From contig CAYYUZ010000001.1 of the NCBI GenBank assembly GCA_964475005.1, positions 19,780 to 83,779 of the forward strand: a stretch of 64,000 nucleotides of DNA. Direction: 5' to 3'. The stretch's first letter is position 1. Each line of letters begins with the position of its first letter. Positions 15,075 through 62,564 of this stretch are shown piece after piece. A program made the translations under genes and the position numbers. The notes below the pieces were generated by a model. It saw nothing but the letters and a program-made list of their open reading frames with translations. It was not told where the DNA came from and did not search any database. This stretch comes from an uncultured Spirochaetales bacterium (lineage in GTDB: Bacteria > Spirochaetota > Spirochaetia > JABEVK01).

Positions 15075-15254
15075 ATGTTACCCCCCGTGACGGTTTCGGT
15101 TCGGATTCCCGGGGCGCTCTGGCGCCGGTGGATTCGCGTCGAGCCCAAAGTCGGCATTGACCTGCAGTCGCTGATTCCCGCCCTGCTCGAGCTCTATCTG
15201 GACCGGGAAGAGCGAAGCCGCGATGGACTGACCGGTATCGAGTATCAAATATGA
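15075..15254 (+). CDS. small hypothetical protein (59 aa)
   Basis: AAGGAG RBS 7 nt upstream of ATG 15075. Start overlaps the cupin stop; conserved operon position immediately before metY. Confidence 0.35.
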   Translation: MLPPVTVSVRIPGALWRRWIRVEPKVGIDLQSLIPALLELYLDREERSRDGLTGIEYQI

Positions 15255-15264
15255 GGAGTCGTTC

Positions 15265-17101: not shown

Positions 17102-17533
17102 GTGAAGCTTTCCACAAGATCCCTCTACGGCCTGCGCCTTTTGTACCAAGTGGCTCGAAACTACGACAATGGCCCACTCCAACTCAAGGAAGTGGCGACA
17201 CGCGAATCGATTTCCGAAAAGTACTTGGGGCAGATCGTCCTGTTGTTGCGTTCTTCGGGAATCCTGGTGTCGGTTCGTGGGAATCAGGGCGGCTATCTTT
17301 TAGCACGCAAACCCTCCAGCATCACCGTTCTCCAGGTGGTCGAGGTTCTTGAGGGAGATTTCCTGGAGAGGCTCGATGACGATTCTCCCATCACCGATCC
17401 CAGCCAGGCCGCGACGCGAGAGGTCTGGCGGCGGCTCGGCCGTTCGGTCCGCGACGTGCTCGGCGCGATCACCCTCGAGGACCTTCTGAGCCTCCCCCAA
17501 AACGACGCCAGTTTTCTCGACTTCGCTATCTAG
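17102..17533 (+). CDS. Rrf2-family transcriptional regulator (IscR/CymR-like)
   Basis: N-terminal MKLSTRSLYGLRLL...LKEVA...ISEKYLGQIV wHTH typical of Rrf2. No C-terminal 3-Cys cluster is evident (CymR-like, not IscR-like). Confidence 0.8.
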   Translation: MKLSTRSLYGLRLLYQVARNYDNGPLQLKEVATRESISEKYLGQIVLLLRSSGILVSVRGNQGGYLLARKPSSITVLQVVEVLEGDFLERLDDDSPITDPSQAATREVWRRLGRSVRDVLGAITLEDLLSLPQNDASFLDFAI

Positions 17534-17566: not shown

Positions 17567-17730
17567 AGAAGAGAGACCGGATAACCGGAAGTCAATTCAA
17601 ATTGACCGGATCAGAAGAGTCGAGGCAAGAGCCAGAAATTCAAGCAGAACTTCTCAACGCTTCGCCGTCTGACTTGACCACCTTTCTCGAAATCCGGTTG
17701 ATCCGGCCCATCCTGTTATCCGGTCTCTTC
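17567..17730. repeat. MITE-like inverted-repeat element, copy A (about 165 bp)
   Basis: Left end GAGAGACCGGATAACCGGA (17571-17589) and right end GTTATCCGGTCTC (17715-17727) are reverse complements. Internal CCGGAT/ATCCGG hexamer repeats (TTGACCGGATCAGAAGAG ... ATCCGGTTGATCCGGCC). Second copy with identical ends at 30964-31120. Confidence 0.7.
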
Positions 17731-18606
17731 CTAAATCCGCGCTGCCGGGGAGGCCGAAATCCCCGTCTCCATGGCAACCAGCACGTCGGCCCATTTGGCG
17801 GCCCAGTCCCGAAGCTCCTTCGATTCCAGCGGCGCCGGAATTTTCGATTCCGTGTGACTGGCAATTTTGTTCGCCAGGTTGAAATACACTTGGGCCTGGG
17901 GAGATTCCGGGTAGGCCTCAATGGTCGTCTTGCCCTGCAGTTCGGCCTGGGTGACGGTGACCGATCTAGGAACGTACTCCACCACCTGGGTCTGGGTCTT
18001 TTGCACGAAGTCGTCGATAATGTCGCGCGGGTAGCCCGGCGCCATCGAGTTGGCAATGACGCCGCCCAACAGTGCGCCTCCGGACCGAGAGTATTTGTGG
18101 ATACCCTTGAACAGGTTGTTGGCGGCGTAGATGGCCATGAAATCGGCCGACGAGACTGTGAAGACGTGCTCAGCGATTCCTTCTCGGATAGGCACCGCGA
18201 AGCCTCCGCACACGACGTCACCAAGAACGTCGTAGATCACGACGTCGAGGTCGAGGTCCTCGAACACCTTCTGTTGTTTGAACAGCTGAACGCTGGTGAT
18301 GATTCCTCGTCCCGCGCAGCCCACACCAGGTGCCGGTCCGCCGGCCTCGACGCAGTACACGCCGCCGAAACCTTCGAAGATCACGGAGCGGGCTTTCAGG
18401 TGGGCGTTCTCCTGTAGGGAATCAAGAATGGTGGGAATGTAGTCGCCGCCGCGAAGGGTGTTTGTCGAGTCGGCCTTCGGGTCGCAGCCGAACTGCATGA
18501 CTTTGTAGCCGAGTTTGGCCAGCGCGGCGCTGAGGTTGCTCGTCGTCGTGGACTTGCCGATGCCGCCCTTTCCGTAGATGGCGATTTGCTGAATTTTCTT
18601 AGACAC
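17731..18606 (-). CDS. nitrogenase-like reductase Fe protein, NifH/BchL/CfbC/MarH family (MarH-like)
   Basis: Walker [15 protein letters not shown]. Both [4Fe-4S] ligand cysteines in canonical context ([19 protein letters not shown]; [14 protein letters not shown]). GGAG RBS 8 nt before GTG 18606; start overlaps the nifX-like stop by 8 nt (GTGTCTAA). Confidence 0.85.
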
Positions 18607-18973
18607 GGGGAGTACTCCTTGGGATAAATACGTTTCGATAAAGAGGCGAAGCAGCGACGCGGGCCAAGGCCGGAACGACGGGGTCTTCGGTGGAGAGAAA
18701 GGCGATTCCGCAGGCGGCCAGGCCTTGAACGACGGCCGGCCCCGCGGCGGCGGCCAGAACGAAGCGGCAATCGGAGAACCGTGCGAGGGCCGTTCCCAGA
18801 CCCTCGCCGTGACCTTCCTCGCCGCAGAGCGCGGGCACGGTTCGTTCGCCTTCCCACGCGAAACTTCGGCCATTCCAGAGATAGAGTTCAAACCGAGAGG
18901 CACGGCCGAAATGCCGATCGACGGTTTGGCCACCCTGGCTGGCGACGGCGGCTCGGATGAGGTTTTCAGCCAT
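18599..18973 (-). CDS. NifX/NafY/NifB-C-terminal-domain family protein (FeMo-cofactor-precursor-binding-like)
   Basis: [24 protein letters not shown] matches the Nitro_FeMo-Co domain start (AVAS..G..V..HFG....F.IY). ATG 18973 overlaps the nifB-like stop by 8 nt (ATGGCTGA). Confidence 0.75.
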
Positions 18974-19850
18974 GACTGAAGGTCTCCGCCACAGCCTCAC
19001 CGCCGTAAAGTTCCGCCGAAAGGTCAAGCTGCCCGGGAATGCCGCAGGCGTCGGCGCGGCAATGCCGGCAATGCCGGAACACCGCTAGGTGCTTTTCCGC
19101 GTCTCGGCGGGCGCGGTCGAGGGTCTCTTCGGTGGGAGGGTCCCACGCGGCGAAACGATGCTGAGGAATCAGGGGGATGATGTTAAAAAGCCCGGCTCCC
19201 TCAGCCGCCACCGTCCGGGCAGTCTCTTCCACGTGGTGATCGTTGATACCAGGAATCAGAACCAGATTCACCTTGATCGTGAGGCCGTGCGCGGCGGCTT
19301 CTCGAATGCCGGCTAGTTGCTGCCGAATCAGGACCTTGGCCCCCGCTTGTCCCTTCAAGACCTGGCCATGAAACCTCACACGGTCGACGATTTGGGCCAC
19401 GATGAGAGGGTCGACGCCGTTGACGGTCACGGTCAGTGTTCCCAGTCCCAACTGCAACAGCTCGTCAAGCCGCTCTTGCAGCAGGAGGCCGTTGGTGCTC
19501 AGGCACTTCACCAAATCAGGAAAGCAGGCCTGCACGGCGCGAAAGGTTTTCAGAGCGTGGGGCGTCGAAAGTGTGTCGCCGGGACCGGCGATGCCAACTA
19601 CAGAGATCTCGGGGCAGAGTTCCAAGGCCCGCGCAACAACTTCGGGGGCTTCTTCGGGTGTCACCAGGCGTCCGGTCACTCCGGGGCGGATCTCACTCTT
19701 GTTGAACTCGCGTCGGCAGAAGCCGCAACTAATGTTGCAGGAAGGGCTGACGGGGAGGTGGACCCTGCCACGGGTCAGGTGGGCCGCCGGGCTGAAACAG
19801 GGGTGGAGACGAGCCGGGGAAGAGGCCGAAAAAAGCGGTGGTGACTCCAT
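18966..19850 (-). CDS. NifB-like radical SAM protein (radical-SAM domain only; NifX domain is the separate downstream ORF)
   Basis: [32 protein letters not shown] matches the NifB signature HPCY..A....R.H.PVAP.CNI.C.YC.R, including the CxxxCxxC radical-SAM cluster. AAGGAGG RBS before ATG 19850. Confidence 0.85.
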
Positions 19851-19964
19851 GTTGCCTCCTTGACTACCGAAAAACTAGCATTTGCAATATTTTATGTCAA
19901 TCAACATAGTTAACATTAATAGACTAAATAACTAGCGTTTAAGTAGTATTACTAGGAGGACGTC
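19851..19964. promoter_or_regulatory. AT-rich divergent control region (nifB-like operon <-> metY paralog 2) with palindrome TAGTATTACTA
   Basis: 114-bp AT-rich gap. Perfect 11-bp palindrome at 19943-19953. TTGCAATATTTTATGTCAATCAAC contains -35-like TTGCAA/TGTCAA words. A related AGTAATACT palindrome lies in the nifD-like/metY3 gap. Confidence 0.45.
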
Positions 19965-21275
19965 ATGTCTGTACCCAAGCTCCAGTTTGATACCCTGAAA
20001 GTCAGGGCCGGCTACGACCCCAAAGATCACCAGAACGCGATCGCCGTTCCCATCTACCAGACCGCCTCGTTTGACCTCGGGGATACCGCCCGCGTCGACC
20101 GGTTACTGTCGTTTCAGGAGGCCGGCTGGCTGTACACCCGGATCGGCAATCCTACTGTCGATGTTTTGGAGCGTCGGGTCGCCGCCCTCGATGGCGGCGC
20201 CGCGGCCATCGCGGTCGCCTCGGGCATGGCAGCCATCTCGTACACTTTACTGAATCTGGCCGAAGGGGGAGGAAGGATCTTGACCACCCCTAGGCTCTAT
20301 GGAGGCACCTTTGACGCCTTCCAGAAGGTCCTCGCGCCGCTGGGTATTGGAGTCGATCTCGTCGAAGACTCCGACAAACCCGAATCGTTCCGCAAGGCGC
20401 TCAAGTCAAATACCAAAGCCATCTTGATCGAGTCGATCTCTAACCCCAACGCCACCGTGCTCGACATCGAGGCCATTGCCAAGGTGGCCCACGACTTCGG
20501 CATTCCCCTGGTGGTCGACAATACCTTCGCGACGCCCTATTTGTTCGACGCGTTTGGCCACGGCGCCGACCTTGTTGTTTATTCGGCGACGAAGGCCCTC
20601 AACGGCCACGGCAACACCATCGGTGGCGTGATCGTCGAAAGTGGGAAGTTCAACTATGCCAACGGAAAGTTCCCGCAATTCCAGAAGCCCACCTACCTGC
20701 TTCGCGACCGACCGACCAACGTCGAGCGCAGCTTTCTCGAGGCCTTTCCGGACTTTCCCCTCACGGTGCGCATCCGTCTGAACTATCTGGCCTACCTCGG
20801 TGCTGCGCTTAGTCCTTTCGATGCCTTTCTGATCCTTCAAGGCATCGAGACGCTTTCCGAGAGGGTGGGCAAGCAGGTGGCGAACGCCGAGAGAGTGATC
20901 AAGTTCCTGGAAACTCACCCGCAGGTCGCCTGGGTGAAGCATCCGGCGGCCAAGGGCAATCCCTACGCGGAACTTGCCAAGAAGTACCTTCCCCAAGGTG
21001 CAGGGGGCATCTTCACGTTTGGATTCCGGGGAAGCGACGCTCAGTACAACAAGTTCATCGATTCGCTCAAGGTCTTCAGTTTCCACGCCAATGTCGGGGA
21101 TGCCCGCTCGCTGGTCATCAATTCCCCCAAGACCACGCACGGCGAGCTTCGCCCCGCCGAACAACTGACCGCCGATATCCCGCCGGAAACGATTCGGCTG
21201 TCGATTGGTATCGAGGACCCCCGCGACCTGATCGCCGACCTGCGCCAGGCGTTCAAGGCGGCGCTGAAGGCCTGA
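19965..21275 (+). CDS. metY: O-acetylhomoserine sulfhydrylase-family PLP enzyme (paralog 2)
   Basis: 436 aa; PLP-lysine motif SATKALNGHG; MetY-family blocks throughout. Sits between and opposite to the two nitrogenase-like operons. Confidence 0.8.
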   Translation: MSVPKLQFDTLKVRAGYDPKDHQNAIAVPIYQTASFDLGDTARVDRLLSFQEAGWLYTRIGNPTVDVLERRVAALDGGAAAIAVASGMAAISYTLLNLAEGGGRILTTPRLYGGTFDAFQKVLAPLGIGVDLVEDSDKPESFRKALKSNTKAILIESISNPNATVLDIEAIAKVAHDFGIPLVVDNTFATPYLFDAFGHGADLVVYSATKALNGHGNTIGGVIVESGKFNYANGKFPQFQKPTYLLRDRPTNVERSFLEAFPDFPLTVRIRLNYLAYLGAALSPFDAFLILQGIETLSERVGKQVANAERVIKFLETHPQVAWVKHPAAKGNPYAELAKKYLPQGAGGIFTFGFRGSDAQYNKFIDSLKVFSFHANVGDARSLVINSPKTTHGELRPAEQLTADIPPETIRLSIGIEDPRDLIADLRQAFKAALKA

Positions 21276-21337
21276 GCCGGCGAGCGAAGCGATGCCCGTG
21301 TCGTTCTAGGCGAAGCCCAATCGGCGAGATCCGAGCC

Positions 21338-22651
21338 TTAGTTAAATTGTTGCAGCACCCAGGTATAGATGTCTTCCAGCAGTTTCAGCCCGCCATGGTA
21401 GCCGGCGTAGGTGCCGTGGAGGACCAGCCTTTCCTTCATGGGCACCGACACCGCCAGAAAGTTGCCCTCCAACTCTTGTGCGAGTTTCTTTTCAAAAATG
21501 CTCCCGAGAATCAAGGGTGGGCCGAACCAGTCGGTGTCGCGGATGGCCTGGTGAATGAGATGGCCGTCTGTCGAAAAGACGACCGGAGCCTCGATCCCGT
21601 ACTGAAACTCCTTGAAATAGCCGACGATGCGGTTCCGATGCTCCTCGGGAGTGGCGTCGGTGATGTACTGGGTTTCGGGAACGAGTCCGAAATCGTTGAC
21701 CAAGAACTTGCTGTAGGCCAATGCGTCCGCGGCGTTTGTGACGGTCGAGAAACGGCGGCTCATGGTCCGGTTTTCGAGGAACACGTCGCTGGTCCTCTCG
21801 ATGTGAAAGTAGTATTCCTTTTCGTGGCGGTCGATGACGCGCTCGACGAGTGTCGGTTCGAGCTCGGCAAATTTCCCTACCGTCCTGAGGAAGCGGCTCG
21901 TCTCGAAGGCTCCTACCGGCAAGTTCGGAAGGTGCAGGTAGGGCGTTCCAAAGGCTTCCTCGAGATGAAGAACGTTGCCAAGTCCCACCCAAGGTGAAAC
22001 GAGCAAGTTGAACTCGGCGTTTGGCACACGGTTGAGATTCTCAATGCCACGGTACTCGCCGAAAATCGCGTTGGGGATAAGGCCAACCTCTTCGAGCAAG
22101 GACTCCAGCACGCGGAAGTTGCCGACCCAGAACGGATCGTAGGACGGGATCGGTCCCCAAACGTTGACCAATCCCTTGACCAGCGGTCCCTTGCCGCGGG
22201 GAACCAGATACTGGTCGATCAGCGCATCGACCACCCACTGGTGGCCTTCGAGGTTGTTAGCCTTGAAGCCAGGGGTTTCCACAGCCACGACAGGTTTTCC
22301 CGCGTTCTGAAATTCTTGCACGACCTTTTTGATATCGTCTCCCACAATTTCGGTGGTGCAGCCCGATAGCACCACGTAGAGGTCTCCGTCGACGACCTTG
22401 AGCGCGTTGGAAATGGTTTCGCGCAGCCGGCCTTCTCCGCCGAATACGGTTTCTCGCTCACCGACATTGGTGCAGGGGTAGATCTGCGGGGACAGGTAGC
22501 CGGAGTCGCCGTTGCTTCCCGCAATGCCCCCCGCGAGCTTGGCCGCGCACCCCGGCCCGGCGTGAAGCACGGGAACTCCGCGGTAGAGACCTTGCACGGT
22601 CTGCATGGCGCCCAAGGCGCAGACGTAACGAGGTTGGTCGAGGATCTTCAT
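21338..22651 (-). CDS. nitrogenase-like reductase component-1 beta-type subunit, NifK/NifN/MarK-like
   Basis: Nitrogenase component-1-type oxidoreductase fold. P-cluster-type cysteine contexts (YVCALGA; AGPGCAAK; VVLSGCTTEIVGDDI = CxxxxIGDD motif). ATGA start/stop overlap with the upstream D-like gene. Confidence 0.8.
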   Translation of the reverse strand: MKILDQPRYVCALGAMQTVQGLYRGVPVLHAGPGCAAKLAGGIAGSNGDSGYLSPQIYPCTNVGERETVFGGEGRLRETISNALKVVDGDLYVVLSGCTTEIVGDDIKKVVQEFQNAGKPVVAVETPGFKANNLEGHQWVVDALIDQYLVPRGKGPLVKGLVNVWGPIPSYDPFWVGNFRVLESLLEEVGLIPNAIFGEYRGIENLNRVPNAEFNLLVSPWVGLGNVLHLEEAFGTPYLHLPNLPVGAFETSRFLRTVGKFAELEPTLVERVIDRHEKEYYFHIERTSDVFLENRTMSRRFSTVTNAADALAYSKFLVNDFGLVPETQYITDATPEEHRNRIVGYFKEFQYGIEAPVVFSTDGHLIHQAIRDTDWFGPPLILGSIFEKKLAQELEGNFLAVSVPMKERLVLHGTYAGYHGGLKLLEDIYTWVLQQFN

Positions 22652-24120
22652 GCGGGTTCTCCGGCTTCAAGAAAGTTGTGGTGGGGCTGGGCAAACCACC
22701 AGCCGGTGTAGGGCAGTTTTACGCGGCTGGCGAGGTTCTTGGTGAAACTGCGGTTGGTCACGACGTCGTGGACGGCTGACGCGAACTTGACCAAGCCGTG
22801 GTAGCCGAAGATGGCGTATTCGTCAAAGACGCACAGTGAAGGGATGCCGAGCTTGGTCGCCCAGACCGTCGAGCCGGTGTGGCGGCTAAAGAAGATGTCG
22901 GGCTTCACTGTGTTGAGGATGTTGAGCAGTTCGAAGTTTTGCAGGTCGTTGACCGACAGGGGAAAGTCGTTGGGGGAGTGATCGAGCAGGTACTGGAAGG
23001 ATTCCGGCCTGCGGCCGTCTTCGTACTGCTTGTCGAAGTGCCAAGCGGCTGAGTGAACGATTTCGAGGCCCAGTTCCTGCAATACTCTTGTCGTGTTGAA
23101 GTTGAAGCCTGGGCCCATGCCGACAACGGCGCGTAGACCAGTAAGCTTGGCCCGGAATGCTTCGATCTTGGGCTGCCAGGTCTCCTTTTCCTTTTTCAAG
23201 TACGCGTCGGCGATGTCATCCTTGCCCAAAACCTTGGCCAAGCCCCGGACCCAACTTTCGAAACCCGCCATGCCGTGGGGTTGGAGCGACTTGATGTAGG
23301 GCACCCCGTACTGTTCTTCCAGTCCATGGCCCAGATAGGTTCCCAACGTGGCGCAAGTGCTGACCGTGGCGACCGACTCAGACAATTGGGACAACTGTTC
23401 AATGGTAGTGTTCGACAAGAGGAACAAAGGTTCGACCCCGAAAAGAGCGAACAACGCGGTGATCTCCTTGCGGGCGCTGCCAAAGAAGTTGATCACGTTG
23501 ACGACGTCGCGCTTGACCTTTGGGGGCTGAACGATGGTGCTCAGAATGGCGTGAAAGGCCGCGTCAAAGCCGCTGGCCCAGATCTGCGTCTTGAACCCCT
23601 CGCAAAAGACGGGAGCGACGGGTATCCCCAGTTCCTCCGAGGTCTCGCGGGCGATGCTGGCGAGGTCCTCGCCGATGACGCCACTAACGCACGAGGCGCC
23701 GATGAAGATGGCGCGCGGGTCATAGCGCCTGTGGGTTTCTCTCACCACGTCGCGAAGGTTCTCGGTGGCCCCAAACACGGTGTCGGCCTCGTTCATGTCG
23801 GTGCTCACGTACCCCGAGCGGGAGTTGTCGAGGCCCAATTTCGCGGCCAACTGATCTTTGGAGTTGCTGAGGCTCATGGCGGTCACCGCGCAGCCAGAGG
23901 GGGAGTGGTGGACCACGGCAGCGTCGGTCACAAAGCCCAGCTGACCGAGAGCGCAGGCGGCGTTGCACAGGCTTGCCTGGCTGAAGCATCGCTTGCGGTC
24001 GCCGAAGCCCCCGCCACCGCAAGCCTGACCGAGCCCTTGAAGCGTTCCCTCGTAGCCCGTAATCGAGCCGAGGCGGTTTTCTCGGGTTCCCGTCTCTGTT
24101 CCTTTGCCGTAATCACTCAT
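22648..24120 (-). CDS. nitrogenase-like reductase component-1 alpha-type subunit, NifD/NifE/MarD-like
   Basis: FIGASCVSGVIGEDL (CxxxxIG[DE]D P-cluster motif), FCEGF, and a Cys in the cofactor-ligand region (VSTCATLGTY). AAGGAG RBS 7 nt before ATG 24120. Confidence 0.8.
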   Translation of the reverse strand: MSDYGKGTETGTRENRLGSITGYEGTLQGLGQACGGGGFGDRKRCFSQASLCNAACALGQLGFVTDAAVVHHSPSGCAVTAMSLSNSKDQLAAKLGLDNSRSGYVSTDMNEADTVFGATENLRDVVRETHRRYDPRAIFIGASCVSGVIGEDLASIARETSEELGIPVAPVFCEGFKTQIWASGFDAAFHAILSTIVQPPKVKRDVVNVINFFGSARKEITALFALFGVEPLFLLSNTTIEQLSQLSESVATVSTCATLGTYLGHGLEEQYGVPYIKSLQPHGMAGFESWVRGLAKVLGKDDIADAYLKKEKETWQPKIEAFRAKLTGLRAVVGMGPGFNFNTTRVLQELGLEIVHSAAWHFDKQYEDGRRPESFQYLLDHSPNDFPLSVNDLQNFELLNILNTVKPDIFFSRHTGSTVWATKLGIPSLCVFDEYAIFGYHGLVKFASAVHDVVTNRSFTKNLASRVKLPYTGWWFAQPHHNFLEAGEPA

Positions 24121-30963: not shown

Positions 30964-31120
30964 GGACGAGAGACCGGATAACCGGAGGGAAACCCAGATG
31001 AACCGGATCAGAGAGGGAAAAGGCAGTGACCATCGGGATTGTTCTGTCTTTCTCTCAACCGAATTCTCTGGCGCCCCAACATCCGGTTGATCCGGCCTTC
31101 ACGGTTATCCGGTCTCCTTT
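30964..31120. repeat. MITE-like inverted-repeat element, copy B (about 157 bp)
   Basis: GAGAGACCGGATAACCGGA at 30968-30986 and CGGTTATCCGGTCTC at 31102-31116. Internal GAACCGGATCAGAGAGG and ATCCGGTTGATCCGGCC shared with copy A; central about 70 bp diverged. Fills the convergent gap between the CGL and lipoprotein stops. Confidence 0.7.
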
Positions 31121-31128
31121 TCCTCGTC

Positions 31129-31386
31129 CTAGATCTTGGTCTTGTCGGTGGCTTTGGTGTTCGCCAGGGGGAGTTTGCAGCAGTCGGGCGTACTCACGCC
31201 GTCGGTTCCCACAGCTTTGAAATCCGCGAATCCCGAGGTTGGGTCGGGCGCGAGAAGGTTCGCGTTGTCATCGTCGGCGCTCGCCTCGGTGGCGGGAGCT
31301 TTCGCCACGGCTTTCTTGTCGGGACCGCAAGCGACGAGGGCGATGGTCGCGGCCAAAAGGACGATGGGGAGGAGGAAGTGGTTCAT
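31129..31386 (-). CDS. small lipoprotein (85 aa), hypothetical
   Basis: Lipoprotein signal peptide MNHFLLPIVLLAATIALVAC with lipobox LVAC. AAGGAG RBS 6 nt before ATG 31386; Lys/Asp-rich mature part. Confidence 0.6.
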   Translation of the reverse strand: MNHFLLPIVLLAATIALVACGPDKKAVAKAPATEASADDDNANLLAPDPTSGFADFKAVGTDGVSTPDCCKLPLANTKATDKTKI

Positions 31387-31473: not shown

Positions 31474-32940
31474 ATGAAAATTGCAGAAAATGTGTTGGCT
31501 TTGATCGGCCGGACACCGTTGGTTCGCTTGCACAAGTTGATTCCTCCCGGCGGAGCCGATCTGTTAGTGAAGCTGGAGTCGATGAACCCCTATTCGAGCG
31601 TCAAGGATAGGCTGGGCGTTGCCCTGATCGAGGCAGCCGAGCGCGACGGAACTCTGACGCCGGGGGCCACGTTGATCGAGCCGACCAGCGGGAACACCGG
31701 CATCGCGCTTGCCTTTGCCGCGATAGTCAAAGGCTACAAACTCATCCTGGTTATGCCCGAGACCGTCAGCTCCGAGCGCCGCAAGATCGTTGAGGCCCTG
31801 GGAGCTGAAGTCGAGTTGGTCGACGCGGCCGACGGCATGGGGGCGTCCGTCCGCCGAGCCGAGGAATTACGGTCCTCGATTCCTGGTGCTGTCATCCTGG
31901 GACAGTTCGACAATCCGGCGAACCCGGCCGTCCACCGGTCCACAACGGCTCAGGAGATCTGGGACGACACCGACGGCACCGTTGACATTTTTGTCGCCGG
32001 GGTCGGAACCGGCGGAACCGTCACCGGCGTGGGACAAAGGCTCAAAGAACTCAAGCCCAGCATCCAGATCATCGCGGTGGAACCGTGGAAATCGTCGGTC
32101 CTTTCCGGCGGCGTGGCGGCTCCCCACAAGATTCAGGGCATCGGGGCGGGGTTTGTTCCCAGGGTGTACGACCCCGCCGTGGTTGACGAGGTCATCACGG
32201 TCAAGGAGGAGGACGCCGGCTACTTCGCTCGAAGGCTGGCTCGGGAAGAAGGCCTTCTGACGGGGGTCTCTTCGGGGGCCGCGCTCTGGGCCGCGTGGCA
32301 GGTCGCCGCGAGAGGCCAAAATGCTGGAAAGCGGATCGTCGTTCTGTTGCCTGACTCGGGAGAGCGCTACCTTTCCACCTGGCTCTACGACTATATCGAC
32401 ATCCGGAAGGTCGGGATCTCGCGGTCTGAAGCCCCTGTCGGTGCTCTCGATCCGGTGGTTCCTCGAACTGATTATGTTCCCACGGCGCCCCTGTTTGACA
32501 GTGATTCGCAGGCGGTCCGTCAGTCGGTTCACTACTTTCAGAACGGCCTCTACTGCAGCGAGGCCATCCTCAAGGCCTTCAACGACCACTACCACCTGGG
32601 CCTCGACGAGAAAGTGCTGAAGATCGCCACGGGTTTCGGTGCCGGTCTTGGCGCCGCCAAGTGCGCTTGCGGATCGGTTACCGGCGCGGCGATGGTGTTG
32701 TCGGCGGTGGCAGGACGAACTCTGTCGAGCGAGTCCGAAGAGGTCGTGTTTCAGACAACGGCGCTCCTTCACGACCGCTTCAAGGCCAAGTATCGGGCCA
32801 TTTGCTGCCGGGTCCTAACGCGAAACGTCGAGTGGGGCTCGGCGGCGCACAAGACCTACTGCGAGCGCTTGGTGTGGGATGCGGCGGCGCTGGCGGACCA
32901 ATTGCTGAAAGAGCATCTGGCAACCCGATTCAATACTTGA
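31474..32940 (+). CDS. cysteine synthase A-type (O-acetylserine sulfhydrylase) fused to C-terminal C_GCAxxG_C_C-family putative redox domain
   Basis: Residues 1-310 are a complete CysK ([33 protein letters not shown]). Residues about 330-488 contain [12 protein letters not shown] ... [18 protein letters not shown] ... CCRVL ... YCER, matching the Cys pattern that names the C_GCAxxG_C_C family. Confidence 0.75.
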
Positions 32941-39379: not shown

Positions 39380-39388
39380 TCAGGCAAA

Positions 39389-39415
39389 ACGGGGCTGGAC
39401 CTCCGTTCAGCCCCT
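39389..39415. terminator. bidirectional rho-independent terminator between convergent metQ and rhodanese genes
   Basis: GGGGCTG...CAGCCCC stem (39391-39397 / 39408-39414) flanked by AAAAC upstream and TTCCTTT downstream, giving a U-run on both strands. Confidence 0.55.
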
Positions 39416-39419
39416 TCCT

Positions 39420-41195
39420 TTATTCGACCCCGATACGCGAAACAGGAAAATCGTCCTGTTTGCTCCATTCATTCCACGAGCCTTCGTAGTTGAGCGGTTT
39501 GTCGTAGGCCAAGGCGTCGAGGATAAGCGTGTAGACCGCCGCCCGAAACCCACCCTCGCAATAGGCATAGACCGTTTGGTTTCTCGTCAGCCCCTTGGAT
39601 TCGAGCAGTGCCAGCAGTTGTTCCGGATTCTTGAGGACTTGAACGGGACGACCTTCCTGAAAACTGCTGGGAACGACTCGGCCCGAGGAGTCACGAAAAT
39701 CGGTATAGAGTGAGTCGTACTCGACCAGGATGGCTCGGGGAATATGGCCCGCGCGGGCCCCGAAGGACGGATCAAGGAGTGTGGTTCCCTCGTATTCTTC
39801 CTTGGTTCGAATGTCGGCTATGGTCACTTCTCCGGGCGAATCGAGAACTTGCAAGAGTTGATCCTTGGTAGCGAGCAACCGAGCGAAGGCCGCAGGAGGA
39901 TACGAGGCAAGGGCCCTGACGGGAAGTCTGGGCACGGTTTCGAGGGCACGACCGTCCACATCTTTCCATTTGTCGATGCCGCCATCGATAATCCAGGCGC
40001 TCTCGTGTCCCAAGGACCGGAGCATCCAAGGAAATCGCCCGGCGTACGAACTGGTGTCGTAGTCATAGGCAACCACCCATGAGGATGGCCTGATTCCTGC
40101 GCTCGTCAGCAGTTCTGCAAAATGTTCCGGTTGAGGAAGGCTGTATTTGATCACCTTGCCGTCGGGCTGAGTCCTCGTTGAATAATACTGATTCCTTGGA
40201 ATGTTGATTGCTCCGGGAATATGGCCCTGGCTGTACTCCTCGGGGCTACGCACATCAATCAAAACCAGGCGCGGATCACTGAGATGGGCCGCCAGCCAAT
40301 CGGTGGAAACAAAGGCACCGAAGGTTCGTGTATCCTTGAGCTTTGTTGAGGGTATTCCCGCCTCCAACGGCGTGTCGTCACGGTTTCCCCATTCTTCCCA
40401 GGACCCATCGTAGTTTCTGACGTTGGTCACCCCGGCGCGTTGAAGCGACAGCAAGGCGTGCGCCGCTCTGACTCCCGACTGGCAGTAGGTAATGACCTCG
40501 GTTTCAGGATTGATCCCGAGCGTTGCCAATTCCTGGGCTATAGACGTAGGGCTTCGCAGGGTCAGTCCATCGTCTTCCAGGCTTCGAGACCATTCCCACC
40601 AAACGGAATTGGGAATCCTGCCGGCGCGTTTGGCGCGTCTATCCGTACCCAGAAACTCTGCCTCTGAGCGCGTATCGAGTAGCACCGTTGCCGAGGCCTT
40701 GCCTTGCACGTCGGCCAGGGTGGCATACCATTTGCGTTCTCGTGGCAAGGTGAGCTTTGTCGGCTTTGGTGAATCGCCCGACCCTTGGTTGACGGGAAGA
40801 CCGGCCGACTTCCAAGTGGCTAGCCCTCCTTCGAGTAGGGCAACACTTTGCCATCCGGCAACACTCAGCGCCCAGGCCAAACGTGCCGCGTAGAGACCGT
40901 TGCCGGCATCGTAGACCAACGCCGGACGCGCCGGATCGAAACCTTGTCCTTCGAGAGCCTGGGCCAAAGCCGCCATTGCTGGAAGCATTCCCTGAACTCC
41001 TTCCACCTCGGTCCACACAAGGTTCTTCTCGACATGCTGAGCCCCAGGGAGGTGTCCAAGCTCGAAATCGGTGAGCAGGCGCCCGTAATCGAAGACTTGA
41101 AAAGGCTGGGACCAACGTCCGTCTTGCCAGACGTCCCGAGCCCCAAGAAACACCGCGAGACCTTCGTAATTTAGATTCGTTATCAACTTGACCAT
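39420..41195 (-). CDS. multi-domain rhodanese (four tandem rhodanese modules; thiosulfate/3-mercaptopyruvate sulfurtransferase-like)
   Basis: Active-site CQSGVRAA and CEGGFRAA (CxxGxR) loops in modules 2 and 4; SseA/TST-like tandem architecture duplicated. Start ATG 41195 preferred, but RBS spacing is poor; start uncertain. Confidence 0.75.
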   Translation of the reverse strand: MVKLITNLNYEGLAVFLGARDVWQDGRWSQPFQVFDYGRLLTDFELGHLPGAQHVEKNLVWTEVEGVQGMLPAMAALAQALEGQGFDPARPALVYDAGNGLYAARLAWALSVAGWQSVALLEGGLATWKSAGLPVNQGSGDSPKPTKLTLPRERKWYATLADVQGKASATVLLDTRSEAEFLGTDRRAKRAGRIPNSVWWEWSRSLEDDGLTLRSPTSIAQELATLGINPETEVITYCQSGVRAAHALLSLQRAGVTNVRNYDGSWEEWGNRDDTPLEAGIPSTKLKDTRTFGAFVSTDWLAAHLSDPRLVLIDVRSPEEYSQGHIPGAINIPRNQYYSTRTQPDGKVIKYSLPQPEHFAELLTSAGIRPSSWVVAYDYDTSSYAGRFPWMLRSLGHESAWIIDGGIDKWKDVDGRALETVPRLPVRALASYPPAAFARLLATKDQLLQVLDSPGEVTIADIRTKEEYEGTTLLDPSFGARAGHIPRAILVEYDSLYTDFRDSSGRVVPSSFQEGRPVQVLKNPEQLLALLESKGLTRNQTVYAYCEGGFRAAVYTLILDALAYDKPLNYEGSWNEWSKQDDFPVSRIGVE

Positions 41196-41247
41196 CCTCC
41201 CGGGCAAGACGTAGTCTCTTATCTATACTTTGTCAATAGGATTACTC

Positions 41248-49425: not shown

Positions 49426-49558
49426 ATTGATGCCTGGCCAAGTCATAGAGTTTTGGAAGTTTGTTGGTACCTATTGACCAAAACTCTCAACTATCCTAAT
49501 CTGAACCATAATGTCGAGTAACACGGTTGACATGGTTGTGTATCGTAAGGAGGATTCC

Positions 49559-49834
49559 ATGAAAGTTTCACTCGTCGGCGGCCTGGACCGTTTGGAACCT
49601 CACTATCGGAACGAGGCCAAAAAGGCCGGACACGAACTAAGAGTGTTCCTGCAGTACGAGTCAGGCATGGAATCCAAACTCCGCTCCACCGAGGCGCTCG
49701 TTCTCTTTACCTCTATGGTCAGTCACAGCGCCCGGAACCTCGCTCTGCAAACCGCCAAGTCTGGTGGAATGACTATTGTCCAGTCCCACAGTTCAGGGGT
49801 GGCCGCATTTCGGGAGTGCTTGGCGGGTCTGTGA
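49559..49834 (+). CDS. DUF2325-like small protein
   Basis: AAGGAGG RBS 6 nt before ATG 49559. Sequence pattern (VSLVGGLDRLEPHY ... LVLFTSMVSHSA) resembles DUF2325. Whether it belongs to the element is unclear. Confidence 0.45.
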   Translation: MKVSLVGGLDRLEPHYRNEAKKAGHELRVFLQYESGMESKLRSTEALVLFTSMVSHSARNLALQTAKSGGMTIVQSHSSGVAAFRECLAGL

Positions 49835-50031
49835 TTGGTTTGGGTATTATGTATCCTAAGAGTCACATCAGGAACCACAGTCCCCAGACCTGGATCAGAA
49901 GCAGACCATGTTAAGTTTGACTCGGTGCCGATCTCTGTTCACTTCTCATCAATAGCGCCTCAGTAGTTCTTCCTTCCAGGGTCCCTTGTATCTTTACACC
50001 CTGAAACGGTCGGTCGGTAACGACCATCGTT

Positions 50032-50937
50032 CTACTTGCCCGTTGCCTGGAAGGTCTTCCCCTCGCGCCTGATACGGCCCTCCTGAAGAAGCTGCCGGAG
50101 GTGGTCTTTGGCCTGCGTCTCGGTGAGGTCAAGCAGGTGGGCGACGGTACGGCGACCCAGAAGCCGAGGACGACCAGGGTGATCGAGGGCAGCGGATAGG
50201 TAGTCATCGGCTTGGATGGGGAGCCTTCGGGATTGCTGAGGAGACTCGCGCTCCGTGCGACAGCGACCGGGATGCTTCCGAAGGGATGCCATCACCAAGA
50301 CAGAAACCTCCGTGAGAACAGCCACAATCAGGACAACGACGGTCTGAAGACCCTGACGGTTCAGGCCAAGGAAACTGGCGACTCGGCCCAAGGGACCGGA
50401 GTCACTACCTTGAAGGCTACGGTTGCGGATGGTGTCGAGGTCACGCCGGATGTCATTCTGGGACTGCCTCAGAACACCCATCGCCTCGGTGAGGTTCCGG
50501 GCGGCTGTTGTGAAATCCGGCGGGAGCTGTGCAAACCGGGCTTCCAACAGGTGCATCTGCCGGTCGAGCTGATCCAAGGTCTTGAGGTCTTGCAGGTGGG
50601 CAGGGTCCCGACTCAAGAGGTTCTGGGATCGAAGCTCGTCGGACAGGCTGATCGACCAAAGGGCCATTCCCAAGGCACTGAAGAGTGTAAGTCCCACCAG
50701 GAGGACGGAAAGTATCCGGTAGAGGCCTCCTTGAAGCCAGGTACGGATCTTGGTGGCTTCCAAGGCACCGGCCCAGAACACGCCTGCCCAAAGAGCCACA
50801 GGGCTCGAACCAGCCAGTTCAATGAAAAGGGCAACCGTCATTGTCCCCGAGATTCCCCAGAGCGTGCCGGCGACGACAGTCGGGAAGGTGATCTTCCGAG
50901 CTAACGTTTCCAAGGCCCCTCTAGTCGGCGATGCCAC
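50032..50937 (-). CDS. membrane protein with 4 N-terminal TM helices and C-terminal winged-helix-like region, hypothetical
   Basis: Hydrophobic N-terminal 110 aa; C-terminal basic segment (TVAHLLDLTETQAKDHLRQLLQEGRIRREG) resembles a wHTH. Confidence 0.4.
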   Translation of the reverse strand: MASPTRGALETLARKITFPTVVAGTLWGISGTMTVALFIELAGSSPVALWAGVFWAGALEATKIRTWLQGGLYRILSVLLVGLTLFSALGMALWSISLSDELRSQNLLSRDPAHLQDLKTLDQLDRQMHLLEARFAQLPPDFTTAARNLTEAMGVLRQSQNDIRRDLDTIRNRSLQGSDSGPLGRVASFLGLNRQGLQTVVVLIVAVLTEVSVLVMASLRKHPGRCRTERESPQQSRRLPIQADDYLSAALDHPGRPRLLGRRTVAHLLDLTETQAKDHLRQLLQEGRIRREGKTFQATGK

Positions 50938-51907
50938 GATACCTCTCCCGCAGGTACTGCCGCCACGGGATCAGGTCAGGGAAATGGCGTTCAACAGGGT
51001 TCTTCAGCAGATCCTCGATGGCGATCGTGACAAAGGAGTCCTGATCTTTGATCAGTGTTCTCCAGACCTCGTAGGTGTCTTCCCCGAACAGTCGGAGTCG
51101 CGGTGAGGTAACATAGCGGAGGGCCCGGTTAGCCCGTGCGTAGACCTGAACGACCCTGACGTAATCGTAGGGTTCCTCCTTCTGGACGAGTATCTCCTGG
51201 GCTAAGAGTTGTTGGCGCAGCATCTGGTAGTGCGGTTCGTAGAGGAATGCGTCCAGGGAGTGACACCGGTCCAGATTCATCGGCGAGTGATCGGCAAAGA
51301 AGAAGGGTGCGTAGGTCTCAGCCCGGTCTGTACCATCGGAACGGAACCGCAGAAACGTAGAACTATACGTTTCGGTCCATTTTTGTTCTAAAAGCACCAA
51401 TATCTTTCTTCCATCGGTCGCCTGATACTGGAGGGCCACGTCGATGCTGGTGTTTCCCGCACCTCTCATTCGGGTACCTCTGATATGCCCCTTCTCGCCC
51501 AAGTAGTTCACGGCGCCTATCCATTCAAACTCGACGTACCGGCCCGAAGGAAAGGAAACGAAGCCTGCGATGTCCGGGATGAACGGAAGGAGATAGGCCT
51601 TGAGAACCTCGGGTTGCTGCTCGAAGATGGCAAAGATGTTGATGGCCATGACCTGAGAACTGCAAAGGTGGTTGCTCGGCATCCCTGGGAGGGCCGATCC
51701 GTGAAAGACAATGCGTTCCCGGCTGAAGGTCTCGATGATCTCGGATCGGATACCGGGGTATAGGTTATGGTGCGCCCAATCGATCGGAAGGCAAACTGCA
51801 TGCAAACGGGACCCGTAGAGCCCCGGTTCCTTGGCCTTCTTGGGAAGTGACTTGGTCAGGAGCTTCCATGTGATCTGTCGCTTGGATTCTCCGCTGAGGT
51901 AGGACAT
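50921..51907 (-). CDS. hypothetical protein, possible PD-(D/E)xK-type nuclease
   Basis: 328 aa, no clear family. D...(E)xK-like context (DGRKILVLLEQKW) after a beta-strand-rich region. Overlaps the downstream membrane-protein gene by 17 nt. Confidence 0.3.
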   Translation of the reverse strand: MSYLSGESKRQITWKLLTKSLPKKAKEPGLYGSRLHAVCLPIDWAHHNLYPGIRSEIIETFSRERIVFHGSALPGMPSNHLCSSQVMAINIFAIFEQQPEVLKAYLLPFIPDIAGFVSFPSGRYVEFEWIGAVNYLGEKGHIRGTRMRGAGNTSIDVALQYQATDGRKILVLLEQKWTETYSSTFLRFRSDGTDRAETYAPFFFADHSPMNLDRCHSLDAFLYEPHYQMLRQQLLAQEILVQKEEPYDYVRVVQVYARANRALRYVTSPRLRLFGEDTYEVWRTLIKDQDSFVTIAIEDLLKNPVERHFPDLIPWRQYLRERYRGIAD

Positions 51908-51919
51908 TGGGTTGGTCTC

Positions 51920-52351
51920 CTAGAAAGAGGAACGGGGTTGGGGCATCTCACCGGACTCTCGGAAGCTGTGGAAGCCGGTTCGTCCGATGATGAGATGGTC
52001 AAGGACTTCGATGCCCAGAAGGGAACCGGCACTGACCAATCGCTGGGTCGCCTCTCGATCTTCTCGGGATGGTTCGAGAGAACCCGAGGGATGGTTGTGG
52101 ACCAAGATCAGGGAGGCCGCGTGGTCCTTGATGGCTTTCAGAAAGACCTCTCGGGGGTGGATCAACGTCCGGTTGAGCAAGCCGATGGTGACGATGTGGA
52201 CCCGGATGATGGTCTGGGCTCCGTTCAGGGTGACCGCAAGGAAATGCTCGGCCTTCTTGGTGGCGAACCGTTTGAGAGCCGGGTAGAGGTCCGCAGGACT
52301 GGTAACCTTGATGTCGGGGGCATGGCGTTCACAGATAAGGTCGAAAGTCAT
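51920..52351 (-). CDS. RadC-like JAB/MPN-domain protein
   Basis: JAMM-type motif HNHPSG preceded by conserved E; size and position typical of mobile-element RadC. Confidence 0.75.
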   Translation of the reverse strand: MTFDLICERHAPDIKVTSPADLYPALKRFATKKAEHFLAVTLNGAQTIIRVHIVTIGLLNRTLIHPREVFLKAIKDHAASLILVHNHPSGSLEPSREDREATQRLVSAGSLLGIEVLDHLIIGRTGFHSFRESGEMPQPRSSF

Positions 52352-52362
52352 GATGGGGCTCC

Positions 52363-53220
52363 TCAGAAGACGGGGTCAGAATGGTTGGGCGAGACGGAGG
52401 CAGCGTTCTTGATCGTCTTCTCCACGTAACCGAGCATTCGCTTCTGGGCGTCAGGGCCTCCGGCACTCTCAAACCTCCCAGTGACCCACGCGCGATGCTT
52501 CTCGTTGAAGAGAGCGGGATGGGCCGTCATCAGGGACTCAATCTTGGAACGGGCAGACTCCGGAGTCGTCGGTCCTGGTAGAGAGACTGAGCCTCGGGCG
52601 GGAGGAGTGGGAGGTGCCGTGACCCGGATTGGGGCGGGCTGGGGCGCTGGTTGGGTGGCAACGGGAGGCTGAACGGAATCCAGACCCAATTCGGTGGGAT
52701 CGTAGGGCAATCCGCCCAAAGCCTCTGAGAACGCCATGCGGAACGCCTGGACGATGGCCACCTTCTTGAGCTGAAACCTGGGCTGTTTCTGCCAGAAGCT
52801 AGGAAGCGAGCCGTCGGTGTTCCGGGGAACGACCTCCTCGAAGAAGCTCTCGTGAACTACCGGGTGGTCCCAGCCATGGCGGTGAATCTCGACGACAGCT
52901 TTGAGGTCGGGGCCGGAACCTTCGATCCGGGCGGTCCAACCGTCCAGGAGTCCGGTGTGCTCTGCACGCTTGATGTAGACCTCGTACCCGACTACCAGGA
53001 GGAATCGGGAGCCATTGTGGCCTGGGATGGCATGGATTTCGCGGCGGAACGGGTCCAAGGAGAACGTGTGGGCGACCTCGATGAACTGAAGTCGTTCGGG
53101 TTCAGTCAACTCGGCAGCGAGGCCCTGGGCCGTGATGAAGTCGAGAATACGTTGACGAGGGACTTCGGGAAGGGGTACTGGCTCGAGGTGGTCAGGGGGG
53201 ATGTGGGACATGGTTTTCAA
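52363..53220 (-). CDS. RecT-family single-strand annealing recombinase
   Basis: LLVVGYEVYIKRAEHTG and FWQKQPRFQLKKVAIVQAFRMAF parallel the RecT blocks LIIGYRGMIDLARRSG and W.EMAKKTAIRRLFK; Pro/Ala-rich C-terminal tail. Confidence 0.6.
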   Translation of the reverse strand: MKTMSHIPPDHLEPVPLPEVPRQRILDFITAQGLAAELTEPERLQFIEVAHTFSLDPFRREIHAIPGHNGSRFLLVVGYEVYIKRAEHTGLLDGWTARIEGSGPDLKAVVEIHRHGWDHPVVHESFFEEVVPRNTDGSLPSFWQKQPRFQLKKVAIVQAFRMAFSEALGGLPYDPTELGLDSVQPPVATQPAPQPAPIRVTAPPTPPARGSVSLPGPTTPESARSKIESLMTAHPALFNEKHRAWVTGRFESAGGPDAQKRMLGYVEKTIKNAASVSPNHSDPVF

Positions 53221-53355
53221 GCTCCTTTGATAGATATAAGTAGAAGCTCATAAGTCTTTGCGGCAGATAATCTTGGGAATCCATGCAACGAGCTGGTGAA
53301 ACAATAAGAAAGCCCACCGGCTAGGGTGGGCTTATGCGGGAAAAAGTAAGGAAGA

Positions 53356-53718
53356 TCAGGAGATGGCCAGGGCGGGTTCGCGGGCGGGTGTGGCGGCTGG
53401 AGTGTCGAACTTGGACTTGAACTCGATGGCCTCGGCGACGAGGTGGGTAGTTGTCCCCTGGATGGTGGTCTCCTGGGAGAGCCGACCGACGGCACGAAGA
53501 CCCCTTCCGGGGACGAGCATGGAACGAGAACTTTCCGCCGTCCGTCCGAATACTCTGACGGGGAACACCAGTTCCTGGGTGGTTTGGGTGTCTTGAGTCC
53601 GCAAATGGCGGACCGAAAGGATATCGAAGCTGACAAAGAGCGTCCCATCGGCTTGTTTGCCAGTGACGGGATCGGCGATGACGGTTCCTTCGAGAAGAAC
53701 CGAGTTAAGACTGTTCAT
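53356..53718 (-). CDS. single-stranded DNA-binding protein (SSB-like OB-fold, no acidic tail)
   Basis: MNSLNSVLLEGTVIADPV start typical of SSB (MxxxNxVxLxGxLxxDPE); OB-fold length. Confidence 0.55.
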   Translation of the reverse strand: MNSLNSVLLEGTVIADPVTGKQADGTLFVSFDILSVRHLRTQDTQTTQELVFPVRVFGRTAESSRSMLVPGRGLRAVGRLSQETTIQGTTTHLVAEAIEFKSKFDTPAATPAREPALAIS

Positions 53719-53863
53719 GGAGGCCTCCTATCTAGGAATAGACAGTCAGTGGGGCCTTCATGAACGCGATGTGATCCAGGGGGCGTCGAGGGGTCAGGAG
53801 ATCAGGCCTAACCAGTTTGAGGCACAGCGGTTCTAATTATTCATTGCGGAGCCGGTAACCCCC

Positions 53864-54880: not shown

Positions 54881-54956
54881 GGGAACTCCTTAGGAAGAGA
54901 TTTAGGTCATGGTAGGCCCAGTGGACACCAAAAGTTGGCGATGATGCCCCACCGAC

Positions 54957-55649
54957 TCACTCGAAGAACGAGTAGATCAGCGCGGAGGTCTGCTTTTTGC
55001 CCGTGAGCTTATCGACTGGAGCGGGGATGTAGAGTATTCCTGGCCGAGCGAATTCCCCTTCAATTTGGTACTGCTTGTCACCTTTGAGCATGGTGATCGG
55101 ACCAAGGCTCGCCGAGAAGCCGCCATACACAAATGAGAAGATGCAGGACTGTCCCTTTCGCGTGAGGCCGAAGTATTGACCGATGGGGATGTTGGCCGCG
55201 CCCGTGTCTTGCTTGATATAAGCAGCGTAGAAGTTGAGAGCGGGACCGATGGTCGCGAATACCTGGCGAGTGTCGAGGTAGTCGAGCATGTCGGGTTCAG
55301 TGTTCTTGACGAGGAGATTCGTCTTGAAACCGGAATCAAGAATAATTATTGAAACATTGTCAGCATCATCGGCGTAAGACACCACGGTAACTTTTGTCCC
55401 CGATAGAAAGTCGGAGATGTCTTGAAGCTTACCGGTACTCTTGAGCGCCCTTATGAAAATACTCTTGTCTGAAAGCGCCGTTCCGAGTTCGCCTTCAAGG
55501 CTGGTCTTCATGACAATGGTAAACTTTGACAGAAGCGCGTCATCTGAGGGTGTGGCGGGAACGGCGGGCGCAGATGACGAGTCTTGGGCCGAAATGTAGA
55601 CAGTGCCGAGCAGGAATATGCTGAGGATGCAGGCAAGAATGCGATGCAT
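54957..55649 (-). CDS. secreted hypothetical protein
   Basis: AAGGAG RBS 7 nt before ATG 55649 (MHRILACILSIFLLGTVYISAQD signal peptide). Confidence 0.55.
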   Translation of the reverse strand: MHRILACILSIFLLGTVYISAQDSSSAPAVPATPSDDALLSKFTIVMKTSLEGELGTALSDKSIFIRALKSTGKLQDISDFLSGTKVTVVSYADDADNVSIIILDSGFKTNLLVKNTEPDMLDYLDTRQVFATIGPALNFYAAYIKQDTGAANIPIGQYFGLTRKGQSCIFSFVYGGFSASLGPITMLKGDKQYQIEGEFARPGILYIPAPVDKLTGKKQTSALIYSFFE

Positions 55650-56758: not shown

Positions 56759-56827
56759 GTTGTCCCCCTTTGTTCTTGCGAACGTTCACTCCCTTGGAAG
56801 CTAAAGCGGGCGATCAAAATGTGTGAG

Positions 56828-60583: not shown

Positions 60584-60604
60584 GGAAAAGCTCGAGGCGG
60601 GAGC

Positions 60605-62547: not shown

Positions 62548-62564
62548 GCCGGGAGGAGTAGGAG

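Follow-up and report, generated by a model that had tools for sequence, protein, structure and literature searches.

Here, we describe two non-coding elements, copies A and B, which are members of a small, previously undescribed family of hairpin-forming interspersed repeats that is present in several related uncultured organisms. Both copies are located in the window, that is, the whole 64,000-nucleotide stretch of DNA analysed here, which is part of a 102.5-kb contig from an uncultured organism; within it, they lie 13.4 kb apart, inside metabolic operons. Each element consists of two inverted arms, built from short CCGGAT boxes, that enclose a core differing from locus to locus, and it is the arms, rather than the core, that are the conserved part of the element. 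Comparison of filled and empty sites shows that such elements have inserted and persisted at gene ends and in an intercistronic spacer.

Anatomy of the two copies

Direct reading of both sequences confirmed the inverted ends and the repeated octamer on which the preliminary description of this DNA was built, as well as a second copy with the same ends and a different centre, found at 30968-31116 (Table 1). The perfect inverted repeat of copy A spans 13 nt, GAGACCGGATAAC at 17573-17585 being matched exactly by its reverse complement, GTTATCCGGTCTC, at 17715-17727; the octamer GACCGGAT occurs at 17575 and 17604, and the complement-type hexamer ATCCGG at 17692, 17701 and 17718. At a length of 17 nt, the inverted repeat contains one mismatch in A and two in B, and overall the terminal inverted repeats are perfect over 13-16 nt and imperfect, with one 3-4-nt indel, over ~36-45 nt. 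This arrangement stands out clearly from the background of the window: the 17-mer, with up to three mismatches, has four matches against 0.28 expected, a count reached in none of 100 shuffles, and tandem CCGGAT boxes occur nine times against 1.1 in shuffles, with seven of the nine falling within copies A and B. Moreover, a repeat search of the window identified A and B as its sole non-coding repeats, the other repeat families being paralogous genes.

Alignment of the arms, with the right arms reverse-complemented, resolves both types into an array of ~36 nt, aaGAGA-CCGGAT-AA-CCGGAT-GGG-CCGGAT-CAA-CCGGAT, i.e., four units with a CCGGAT core at a spacing of 8-9 nt, and the two arms of an element are imperfect inverted repeats of each other. 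Thus, instead of the four equally spaced half-sites initially proposed, there are about four units per arm, with an insertion in the left one. The right arm holds the array form, its third unit being decayed in A (to ATCCTG) and in B (to TTCACGG) and intact in the metagenome copies described below. The left arm departs from the right one by an insertion of 3-4 nt and by a different unit 3 (YYCRAGAT); in copy A, it comprises four units of 8-9 nt, the third of the type YYCRAAT/CAGAT. This asymmetry is common to A, B and the orthologous metagenome copies L132 and L274. Together, the inverted arrays and the arm asymmetry indicate that the element is a long, imperfect composite inverted-repeat pair around a locus-specific core.

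Between A and B, the left block of 45-48 nt is 81% identical and the right block of 36 nt, with the layout ATCCGGTTGATCCGGCC, N6, GTTATCCGGTCTC, is 86% identical; CCGGATCA follows CCGGATAACCGG at a distance of 17 nt in each copy, and the centres of 76 nt (A) and 68 nt (B) bear no similarity to each other. Across the family, the arms measure ~36-45 bp and the cores, different at each locus, 40-76 bp. Each element also carries two GATC sites, one per arm and placed symmetrically (CCGGATCA and TGATCCGG; 17606-17613, 17698-17705, 31003-31010 and 31087-31094). A protein-coding reading was rejected because the ORFs that cross the elements differ between the copies, and no crossing ORF is common to A and B; given that such spurious ORFs run through the repeats, gene callers could be misled.

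Table 1. Coordinates of copies A and B, their parts and the neighbouring features in the window
Feature	Coordinates	Strand	Remarks
Copy A, whole element	17571-17727	+	Non-coding, in a convergent gap
Copy A, left arm	17571..17615	+	GAGAGACCGGATAACCGGA, 16-nt spacer (17590-17605), CCGGATCAGA
Copy A, locus-specific core, 76 nt	17616..17691	+	z = +0.40 on folding
Copy A, right arm	17692..17727	+	ATCCGGTTG ATCCGGCCC ATCCTGTT ATCCGGTCTC; nhmmer E = 1.2e-13
Copy B, whole element	30968-31116	+	Same ends as copy A
Copy B, left arm	30968..31012	+	81% identical to the left arm of A
Copy B, locus-specific core, 68 nt	31013..31080	+	z = +0.19 on folding
Copy B, right arm	31081..31116	+	nhmmer E = 3.5e-11; 86% identical to A
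Rrf2-family regulator gene	17102..17533	+	Stop 37 nt ahead of copy A
NifH-like gene, 291 aa as called	17731..18606	-	Stop codon 17731-17733
Cystathionine gamma-lyase/synthase-type gene (CGL; Cys/Met-PLP enzyme), 378 aa	29820..30956	+	Stop 11 nt before copy B
Small putative lipoprotein gene, 85 aa from MNHFLL...LVAC	31129..31386	-	Stop 12 nt after copy B
Empty site, 10-nt spacer between the 59-aa ORF and OAHS gene	15255..15264	+	Filled by a 121-nt family member in L132 and L274

Genomic context

As first described, both copies occupy convergent gaps, A between the stop codons of the Rrf2 and NifH-like genes and B between those at 30956 and 31129, and are 3′ of every neighbouring gene. The Rrf2 gene is the last in an operon that encodes, in order, a cupin protein, the product of a 59-aa ORF, O-acetylhomoserine sulfhydrylase (OAHS), a CoA-binding protein and the Rrf2 regulator, and copy A ends 3 nt short of the stop codon of the convergent NifH-like gene. 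Upstream of copy B are a gene for a CBS-domain PALP enzyme and then the cystathionine gamma-lyase-type gene; on its other side, the small putative lipoprotein, whose signal peptide and lipobox are read from the translation, has no Pfam match. Given that nearly all genes in the 1-50 kb part of the window are involved in sulfur acquisition and Cys/Met metabolism, the sulfur neighbourhood of A and B says little.

This sulfur island contains several NMT1/NlpA-type ABC importers, TauD, a protein with four rhodanese domains (39420-41207), three OAHS paralogues (15265, 19965 and about 24287), CBS plus CGL, and PALP cysteine synthases, one of them fused to a C_GCAxxG_C_C domain (31474-32940). Set among the OAHS paralogues is a nitrogenase-like group of genes (17731-24120) that comprises, on the minus strand, the NifH-like gene (17731-18606), a radical SAM gene (18966-19850) and two Oxidored_nitro genes (21338-22651 and 22648-24120), together with one OAHS gene on the plus strand (19965-21275); this set may resemble sulfur-salvage clusters of the methylthio-alkane-reductase type. 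At the distal boundary of the island, a stretch of 600 nt without a large ORF (49426-50031) includes a short ORF starting ATGAAAGTTTCACTCGTC, possibly a DUF2325-type small gene known in relatives. From there on (50032-64000 and, beyond the window, L260), the DNA belongs to a prophage-like or integrative element with REase-ARP/PDDEXK, RadC, RecT, SSB, WYL, Mu Gam and DnaB_C genes, with HTH_17 and Phage_integrase genes immediately past the end of the window; the GC skew turns strongly positive from about 50 kb.

The 59-aa ORF (15075-15254), in the interval between the cupin and OAHS genes, is conserved in all relatives (L132, L274, L258 and L259), and searches of Pfam and PDB with its product returned no match. 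The product resembles a ribbon-helix-helix protein when inspected by eye, but its candidacy as a regulator of this type that binds the boxes is unsupported; the single-sequence AlphaFold model is beta-beta-alpha in layout, with a pLDDT of 66.

Family members in related organisms

Contrary to the possibility, raised at the outset, that only these two copies exist, further ones were found in JGI and Logan metagenome contigs of related organisms. A scan of JGI metagenomes with the right-arm pattern recovered at least four family loci, representing at least three independent sites, and one chance match within a coding region (L130), which was rejected as a family member. Because the JGI contigs containing copy A were absent from the scan output, these family counts are lower bounds. 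Copy A itself is near-unchanged in 13 short contigs from other samples, with one G/A SNP, which is in the core.

The metagenome copies differ considerably in their state of preservation. L132 is a full copy of 121 nt, and L274 is its orthologue at the same site. L131 and L134 are the same locus, a near-solo right arm in an 87-nt convergent gap flanked by a DUF4287 gene and a glycosyltransferase-like gene, where a single box remains on the left side and overlaps the stop codon. L133 consists of two tandem units of 222-223 nt; in each, a core separates a degenerate left arm from an intact right one, and an additional degenerate motif that resembles an arm is also present. In this contig (1-1356), the extra motif is CCATCCGAYTTCATCCGTCCTATCCGAAAC, and a similar one, CGGATGAGGTCGGATGG, stands in inverted orientation at the far end, which suggests that the organism may have a second, related box family with an ATCCG core. 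At all four loci with both flanks readable (A, B, L131/L134 and L132/L274), the element is in a spacer downstream of an ORF, three of these spacers being convergent gaps and one intra-operonic; for L133, only the downstream gene is seen.

In the source genome, two copies were found in what we estimate to be ~80 kb of sequence (the window and its extensions L260, L261 and L265). An nhmmer search of 222 kb of lineage loci with the arm profile yielded nothing beyond the known copies, and 73 kb of contigs from relatives (L258, L259, L267 and L268) contained none. The left-arm pattern had more than 119 matches in the genome collection; among 129 pattern matches examined across all loci, none of those listed from this collection had a matching right arm. 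In viral contigs, the specific patterns produced no matches and the 15-mer matches proved to be PVDPVD-type coding repeats; BLAST searches of plasmids and phages returned chance or coding-repeat matches only, and a full-text literature search for the arm sequences retrieved no papers. The nearest named homologues are spread over several phyla, namely, Chloroflexota, Holophaga/Acidobacteriota and Spirochaetota.

Filled and empty sites

L132 and L274 carry the element within the operon, where it separates the 59-aa ORF from the OAHS gene, with all genes in the same direction; it begins 6 nt past the stop codon of the 59-aa ORF and is positioned 29 nt upstream of the OAHS start codon. The cupin protein of L132 is 68% identical to that of the window. 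At the same 59-aa ORF/OAHS junction, the window has a spacer of 10 nt, and those of L258 and L259 are 13 and 21 nt long, respectively. The sites of A and B likewise have empty counterparts: no element follows an Rrf2 gene with 90% protein identity in a relative, and a CGL gene with 85% protein identity in a relative is followed, instead of an element, by a classical bidirectional terminator (A-tract, stem, T-tract). The filled and empty sites, together with the absence from relatives, imply that the element is gained or lost locus by locus.

The suggestion that the elements behave like MITEs stands insofar as they are interspersed, non-coding repeats bounded by terminal inverted repeats, with filled and empty sites, and fails on the target-site duplication and the shared core. 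Duplicated flanking nucleotides were sought at all copies and none were recognised, in that no shared direct repeat of 2 nt or more flanks A, B, L132, L274, L133a/b or L131 at any plausible boundary; such a duplication could have been erased by age. Pfam scans of the major ORFs of the window, and the gene calls of the related loci, revealed no transposase, either DDE or Y1, and an autonomous element with the same ends was found neither in the window and related loci nor in plasmids, phages or viral contigs.

Conservation of the arms

The orthologous pair, L132 and L274, allows the rate of change of the element to be set against that of its surroundings. The arms are 94% identical (74/79) and the core is 81% identical (34/42), compared to 60% (373/617) for the third codon positions of the flanking genes (Fisher test against third positions, p = 2e-10 for the arms and p = 0.008 for the core) and about 71% for the spacer upstream of the cupin gene. 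Given these differences, the arms appear to be under purifying selection in place, as judged from a single orthologous pair. Recent recombination was rejected as the cause of this conservation: the identity of third positions beside the element is just 0.60-0.70 (70% in the first 40 OAHS codons and 60% in the last 20 codons of the 59-aa ORF), and such low synonymous identity is incompatible with a recent recombination tract. Among the five arm substitutions that separate L132 from L274, two break predicted pairs and none is compensated; on this comparison, the conserved feature is the arm sequence, beyond mere pairing ability.

Predicted folding and transcription signals

The long imperfect hairpin that had been envisaged was examined by fold prediction: as RNA, the complete elements give much stronger folds than their shuffled sequences (z = -4.5, -5.4 and -5.1), the cores alone folding no better than shuffles (z = +0.4 for A and +0.2 for B). 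A single arm, as ssDNA, forms two 4-bp CCGG mini-hairpins only; a resemblance to ANTAR-type dual hairpins, prompted by these, was rejected because the loop sizes do not fit. RNAalifold analysis of four copies gave an unfavourable covariation term of +1.25, and the three pairs changed on both sides come from the misaligned L133 row and from the unrelated cores. A search of the whole window against Rfam returned no match at the gathering threshold and only far-sub-threshold chance matches at E <= 10.

In gaps A and B, there is no terminator-like site in or at the elements, nor is there a promoter-like (sigma-70-like) site within or beside them, cores included. Intrinsic termination is not to be expected, given that the hairpin lacks a trailing U-tract. 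Two convergent gaps, 39380-39419 of the window and 11138-11232 of L267, contain classical bidirectional terminators of the intrinsic type, with an A-run, a GC stem and a T-run, so that the lineage uses classical terminators where the repeat element is absent.

Origin and possible roles

We attach about even confidence to the reading that copies A and B are lineage-restricted, low-copy palindromic repeats, REPIN/BIME-like or MITE-like, with arms that are predicted protein sites and with a hairpin formed in co-transcribed mRNA. The arms would then be recognised by a single sequence-specific protein, which may be a host factor or the enzyme that originally dispersed the family. The element would be transcribed together with the upstream gene, and its two arms would pair in the mRNA into an interrupted helix of about 27 bp. 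This helix might serve as a 3′-end or intercistronic barrier, placed in gaps without a classical terminator, that protects the transcript from exonucleases or attenuates read-through. Several observations count against this reading. Target-site duplications are not visible at any copy, and no transposase was found among the major ORFs of the window or in the related loci; the copy number looks low; the unrelated cores are unlike the product of one MITE burst; and the hairpin is not followed by a U-tract. Furthermore, hairpin function alone leaves the conservation of the arm sequence, beyond complementarity, unexplained, and the estimate of selection comes from one orthologous pair.

Alternatively, although this seems rather unlikely, the elements could act at the DNA level, as arrays of eight CCGGAT boxes, four per arm and 8-9 bp apart, bound cooperatively by a predicted host protein and functioning as a transcription roadblock or insulator between converging or adjacent units, or regulating the sulfur amino-acid operons at A, B and L132/L274. 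The arm sequence is indeed conserved in paralogues and orthologues without compensatory evolution, the arms of the single orthologous pair appear to be under purifying selection, and three of the five independent loci (A, B and L132/L274) are in Cys/Met operons; the tandem spacing of 8-9 bp, moreover, is presumably akin to that of ribbon-helix-helix repressor arrays (MetJ and Omega). However, the tandem boxes are found inside elements only and never at promoters in the window, and A and B are 3′ of all neighbouring genes; the boxes of the operator array initially suggested are nonetheless real. The association of A and B with sulfur genes carries little weight, given that the window is mostly occupied by such genes over 1-50 kb, and L131/L134 and L133 are outside sulfur loci. 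No candidate binder was found either, the model of the 59-aa ORF product being weak and not beta-alpha-alpha.

A structured cis-acting RNA or a small RNA, with helices P1 and P2, an asymmetric internal loop as the conserved motif and a variable apical domain, is distinctly less probable; the motif would possibly be bound by a protein recognising the repeated CCGGAU units. The strong predicted folds of the whole elements are in line with the structured RNA of the preliminary description, as are the arm asymmetry kept in A, B, L132 and L274 (the 3-4-nt insertion and the distinct unit 3), the orientation with respect to the co-directional gene upstream, which is known at four loci and is the same at all of them, and the location of the L132/L274 copy 29 nt upstream of the OAHS start. 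Against this reading, Rfam offers no match even at E <= 10, the covariation term is unfavourable (+1.25), the five arm substitutions between orthologues include two that break pairs and none that is compensated, and the decay of unit 3 in the right arms of A and B is not accompanied by a matching change in the left arms. In addition, the cores show no excess structure, and no promoter-like site is found in or beside the element.

A bolder proposal, to which we likewise assign a low probability, is that the arms, rather than being transposon relics, are cis sites of a dedicated, predicted trans-acting protein, possibly a domesticated transposase or an oligomeric repressor-like binder. If true, this protein would set up barriers or insulators that act on transcription in both directions, at the boundaries of operons and within operons of the sulfur amino-acid island, as a sequence-specific, protein-dependent terminator or insulator system under purifying selection.

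Still a little less credible is the view that the elements are inert leftovers of an ordinary MITE or of a pair of IS ends that have no host function and survive only at harmless sites. Such an origin would be compatible with the sub-repeats inside the terminal inverted repeats, an arrangement found at some transposon ends, with the patchy occurrence among relatives, with the location in gaps where insertion does no harm, and with decayed units or degenerate and solo arms. Nevertheless, between the orthologues the element has changed far less than synonymous sites or another spacer of the same contigs, target-site duplications are not visible and the cores are unrelated between copies.

Finally, an inverton, in which a site-specific recombinase flips the core between the inverted arms at several loci, would account for an element size of 120-160 bp, for the conservation of the inverted repeats and for centres that differ from locus to locus, in what we assume to be the manner of multi-locus invertons, but is highly improbable: copy A has the same orientation in 13 of 13 independent assemblies, L132 and L274 are identically oriented, the cores contain no sigma-70-like promoter, there is no adjacent recombinase gene, and A and B lie between convergent gene ends, with no obvious target for a switchable promoter.

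The repeats mark operon boundaries in a large sulfur-assimilation island with a nitrogenase-like gene set. REPs, REPINs and MITEs are mostly known from cultured Proteobacteria, and their host-level roles are still debated. The present family is from an uncultured lineage, its arms are unusual in being arrays of 6-nt boxes rather than a single palindrome, and its cores are locus-specific. The box-array arms and locus-specific cores, along with the slow evolution of the arms of one copy in place, argue for sequence-specific recognition by a protein and for a host-level function, which makes the family a manageable model for studying why such elements persist.

Comparison with known repeat systems

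The closest parallels are with the REP, REPIN and BIME elements (Bertels & Rainey 2011, PMC3116915; Di Nocera et al. 2013, PMC3733652). As characterised in these two papers, REPINs share with the present family the inverted conserved units, the less conserved spacer and the predicted hairpin in ssDNA or mRNA. Also shared are the extragenic location, mostly downstream of ORFs and between convergent or unidirectional genes, the occurrence as singlets and as tandem clusters (here, L131 and L133) and the persistence at an orthologous site (here, L132/L274) (PMC3116915, PMC3733652). However, a REP unit is defined as an imperfect palindrome of 20-40 bp with a GTAG or CGTC tag at one end (PMC3733652), whereas the arm consensus AAGAGACCGGATAACCGGATGGGCCGGATCAACCGGAT has neither tag, and the arm is an array of 36-45 bp made of four direct CCGGAT units, not a single 20-40-bp palindrome. 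REPINs, moreover, number tens to hundreds per genome and have a cognate RAYT gene; here, the copy number appears low, with two copies in the ~80 kb of the genome that were inspected, in which no RAYT or Y1 transposase was found.

Di Nocera et al. also describe families of terminal inverted repeats that flank TIRYT genes (‘TIRtrons’) and are moderately abundant and unrelated to REPs (PMC3733652). Like the elements described here, the TIRtrons of that account involve long terminal inverted repeats that occur as singles, dimers and clusters, the TIRtrons being spread over several phyla including Acidobacteria; unlike in some of them, the motif GGGGWSAS is absent here (PMC3733652). A TIRYT gene is not known from the present lineage. 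Any link to the TIRYT-flanking families would be one of analogy only.

The Correia (Neisseria), ERIC and RUP elements are non-coding sequences of 100-160 bp with terminal inverted repeats that reside in intergenic regions, are co-transcribed, and form long hairpins affecting mRNA processing or stability; they have a conserved internal sequence and usually a target-site duplication (TA in the case of Correia). Terminal inverted repeats are present in our elements as well, but the cores compared (A, B, L132, L131 and L133) have nothing in common, and a target-site duplication cannot be seen. These bacterial MITEs are reviewed in Delihas 2011 (PMC3184786).

The AAC/GTT ends also prompted a comparison with attC sites, with which the elements have in common conserved, imperfect inverted ends (..AAC / GTT..), a variable centre and a position at the 3′ ends of ORFs. 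This identity was rejected on account of the core sites, given that GGATAAC departs from RYYYAAC, and GTTATCC from GTTRRRY, at two positions each. Moreover, there is no cassette array and no intI, and the flanks are conserved metabolic operons. Intrinsic terminators differ in having a short GC-rich stem and a T-run, which the elements lack. Thus, with the REP tag, GGGGWSAS, the single palindrome, two features of MITEs (the target-site duplication and the shared core) and the attC core sites all wanting, the family is best viewed as a variant within the known kind of palindromic repeats, with an arm design of its own.
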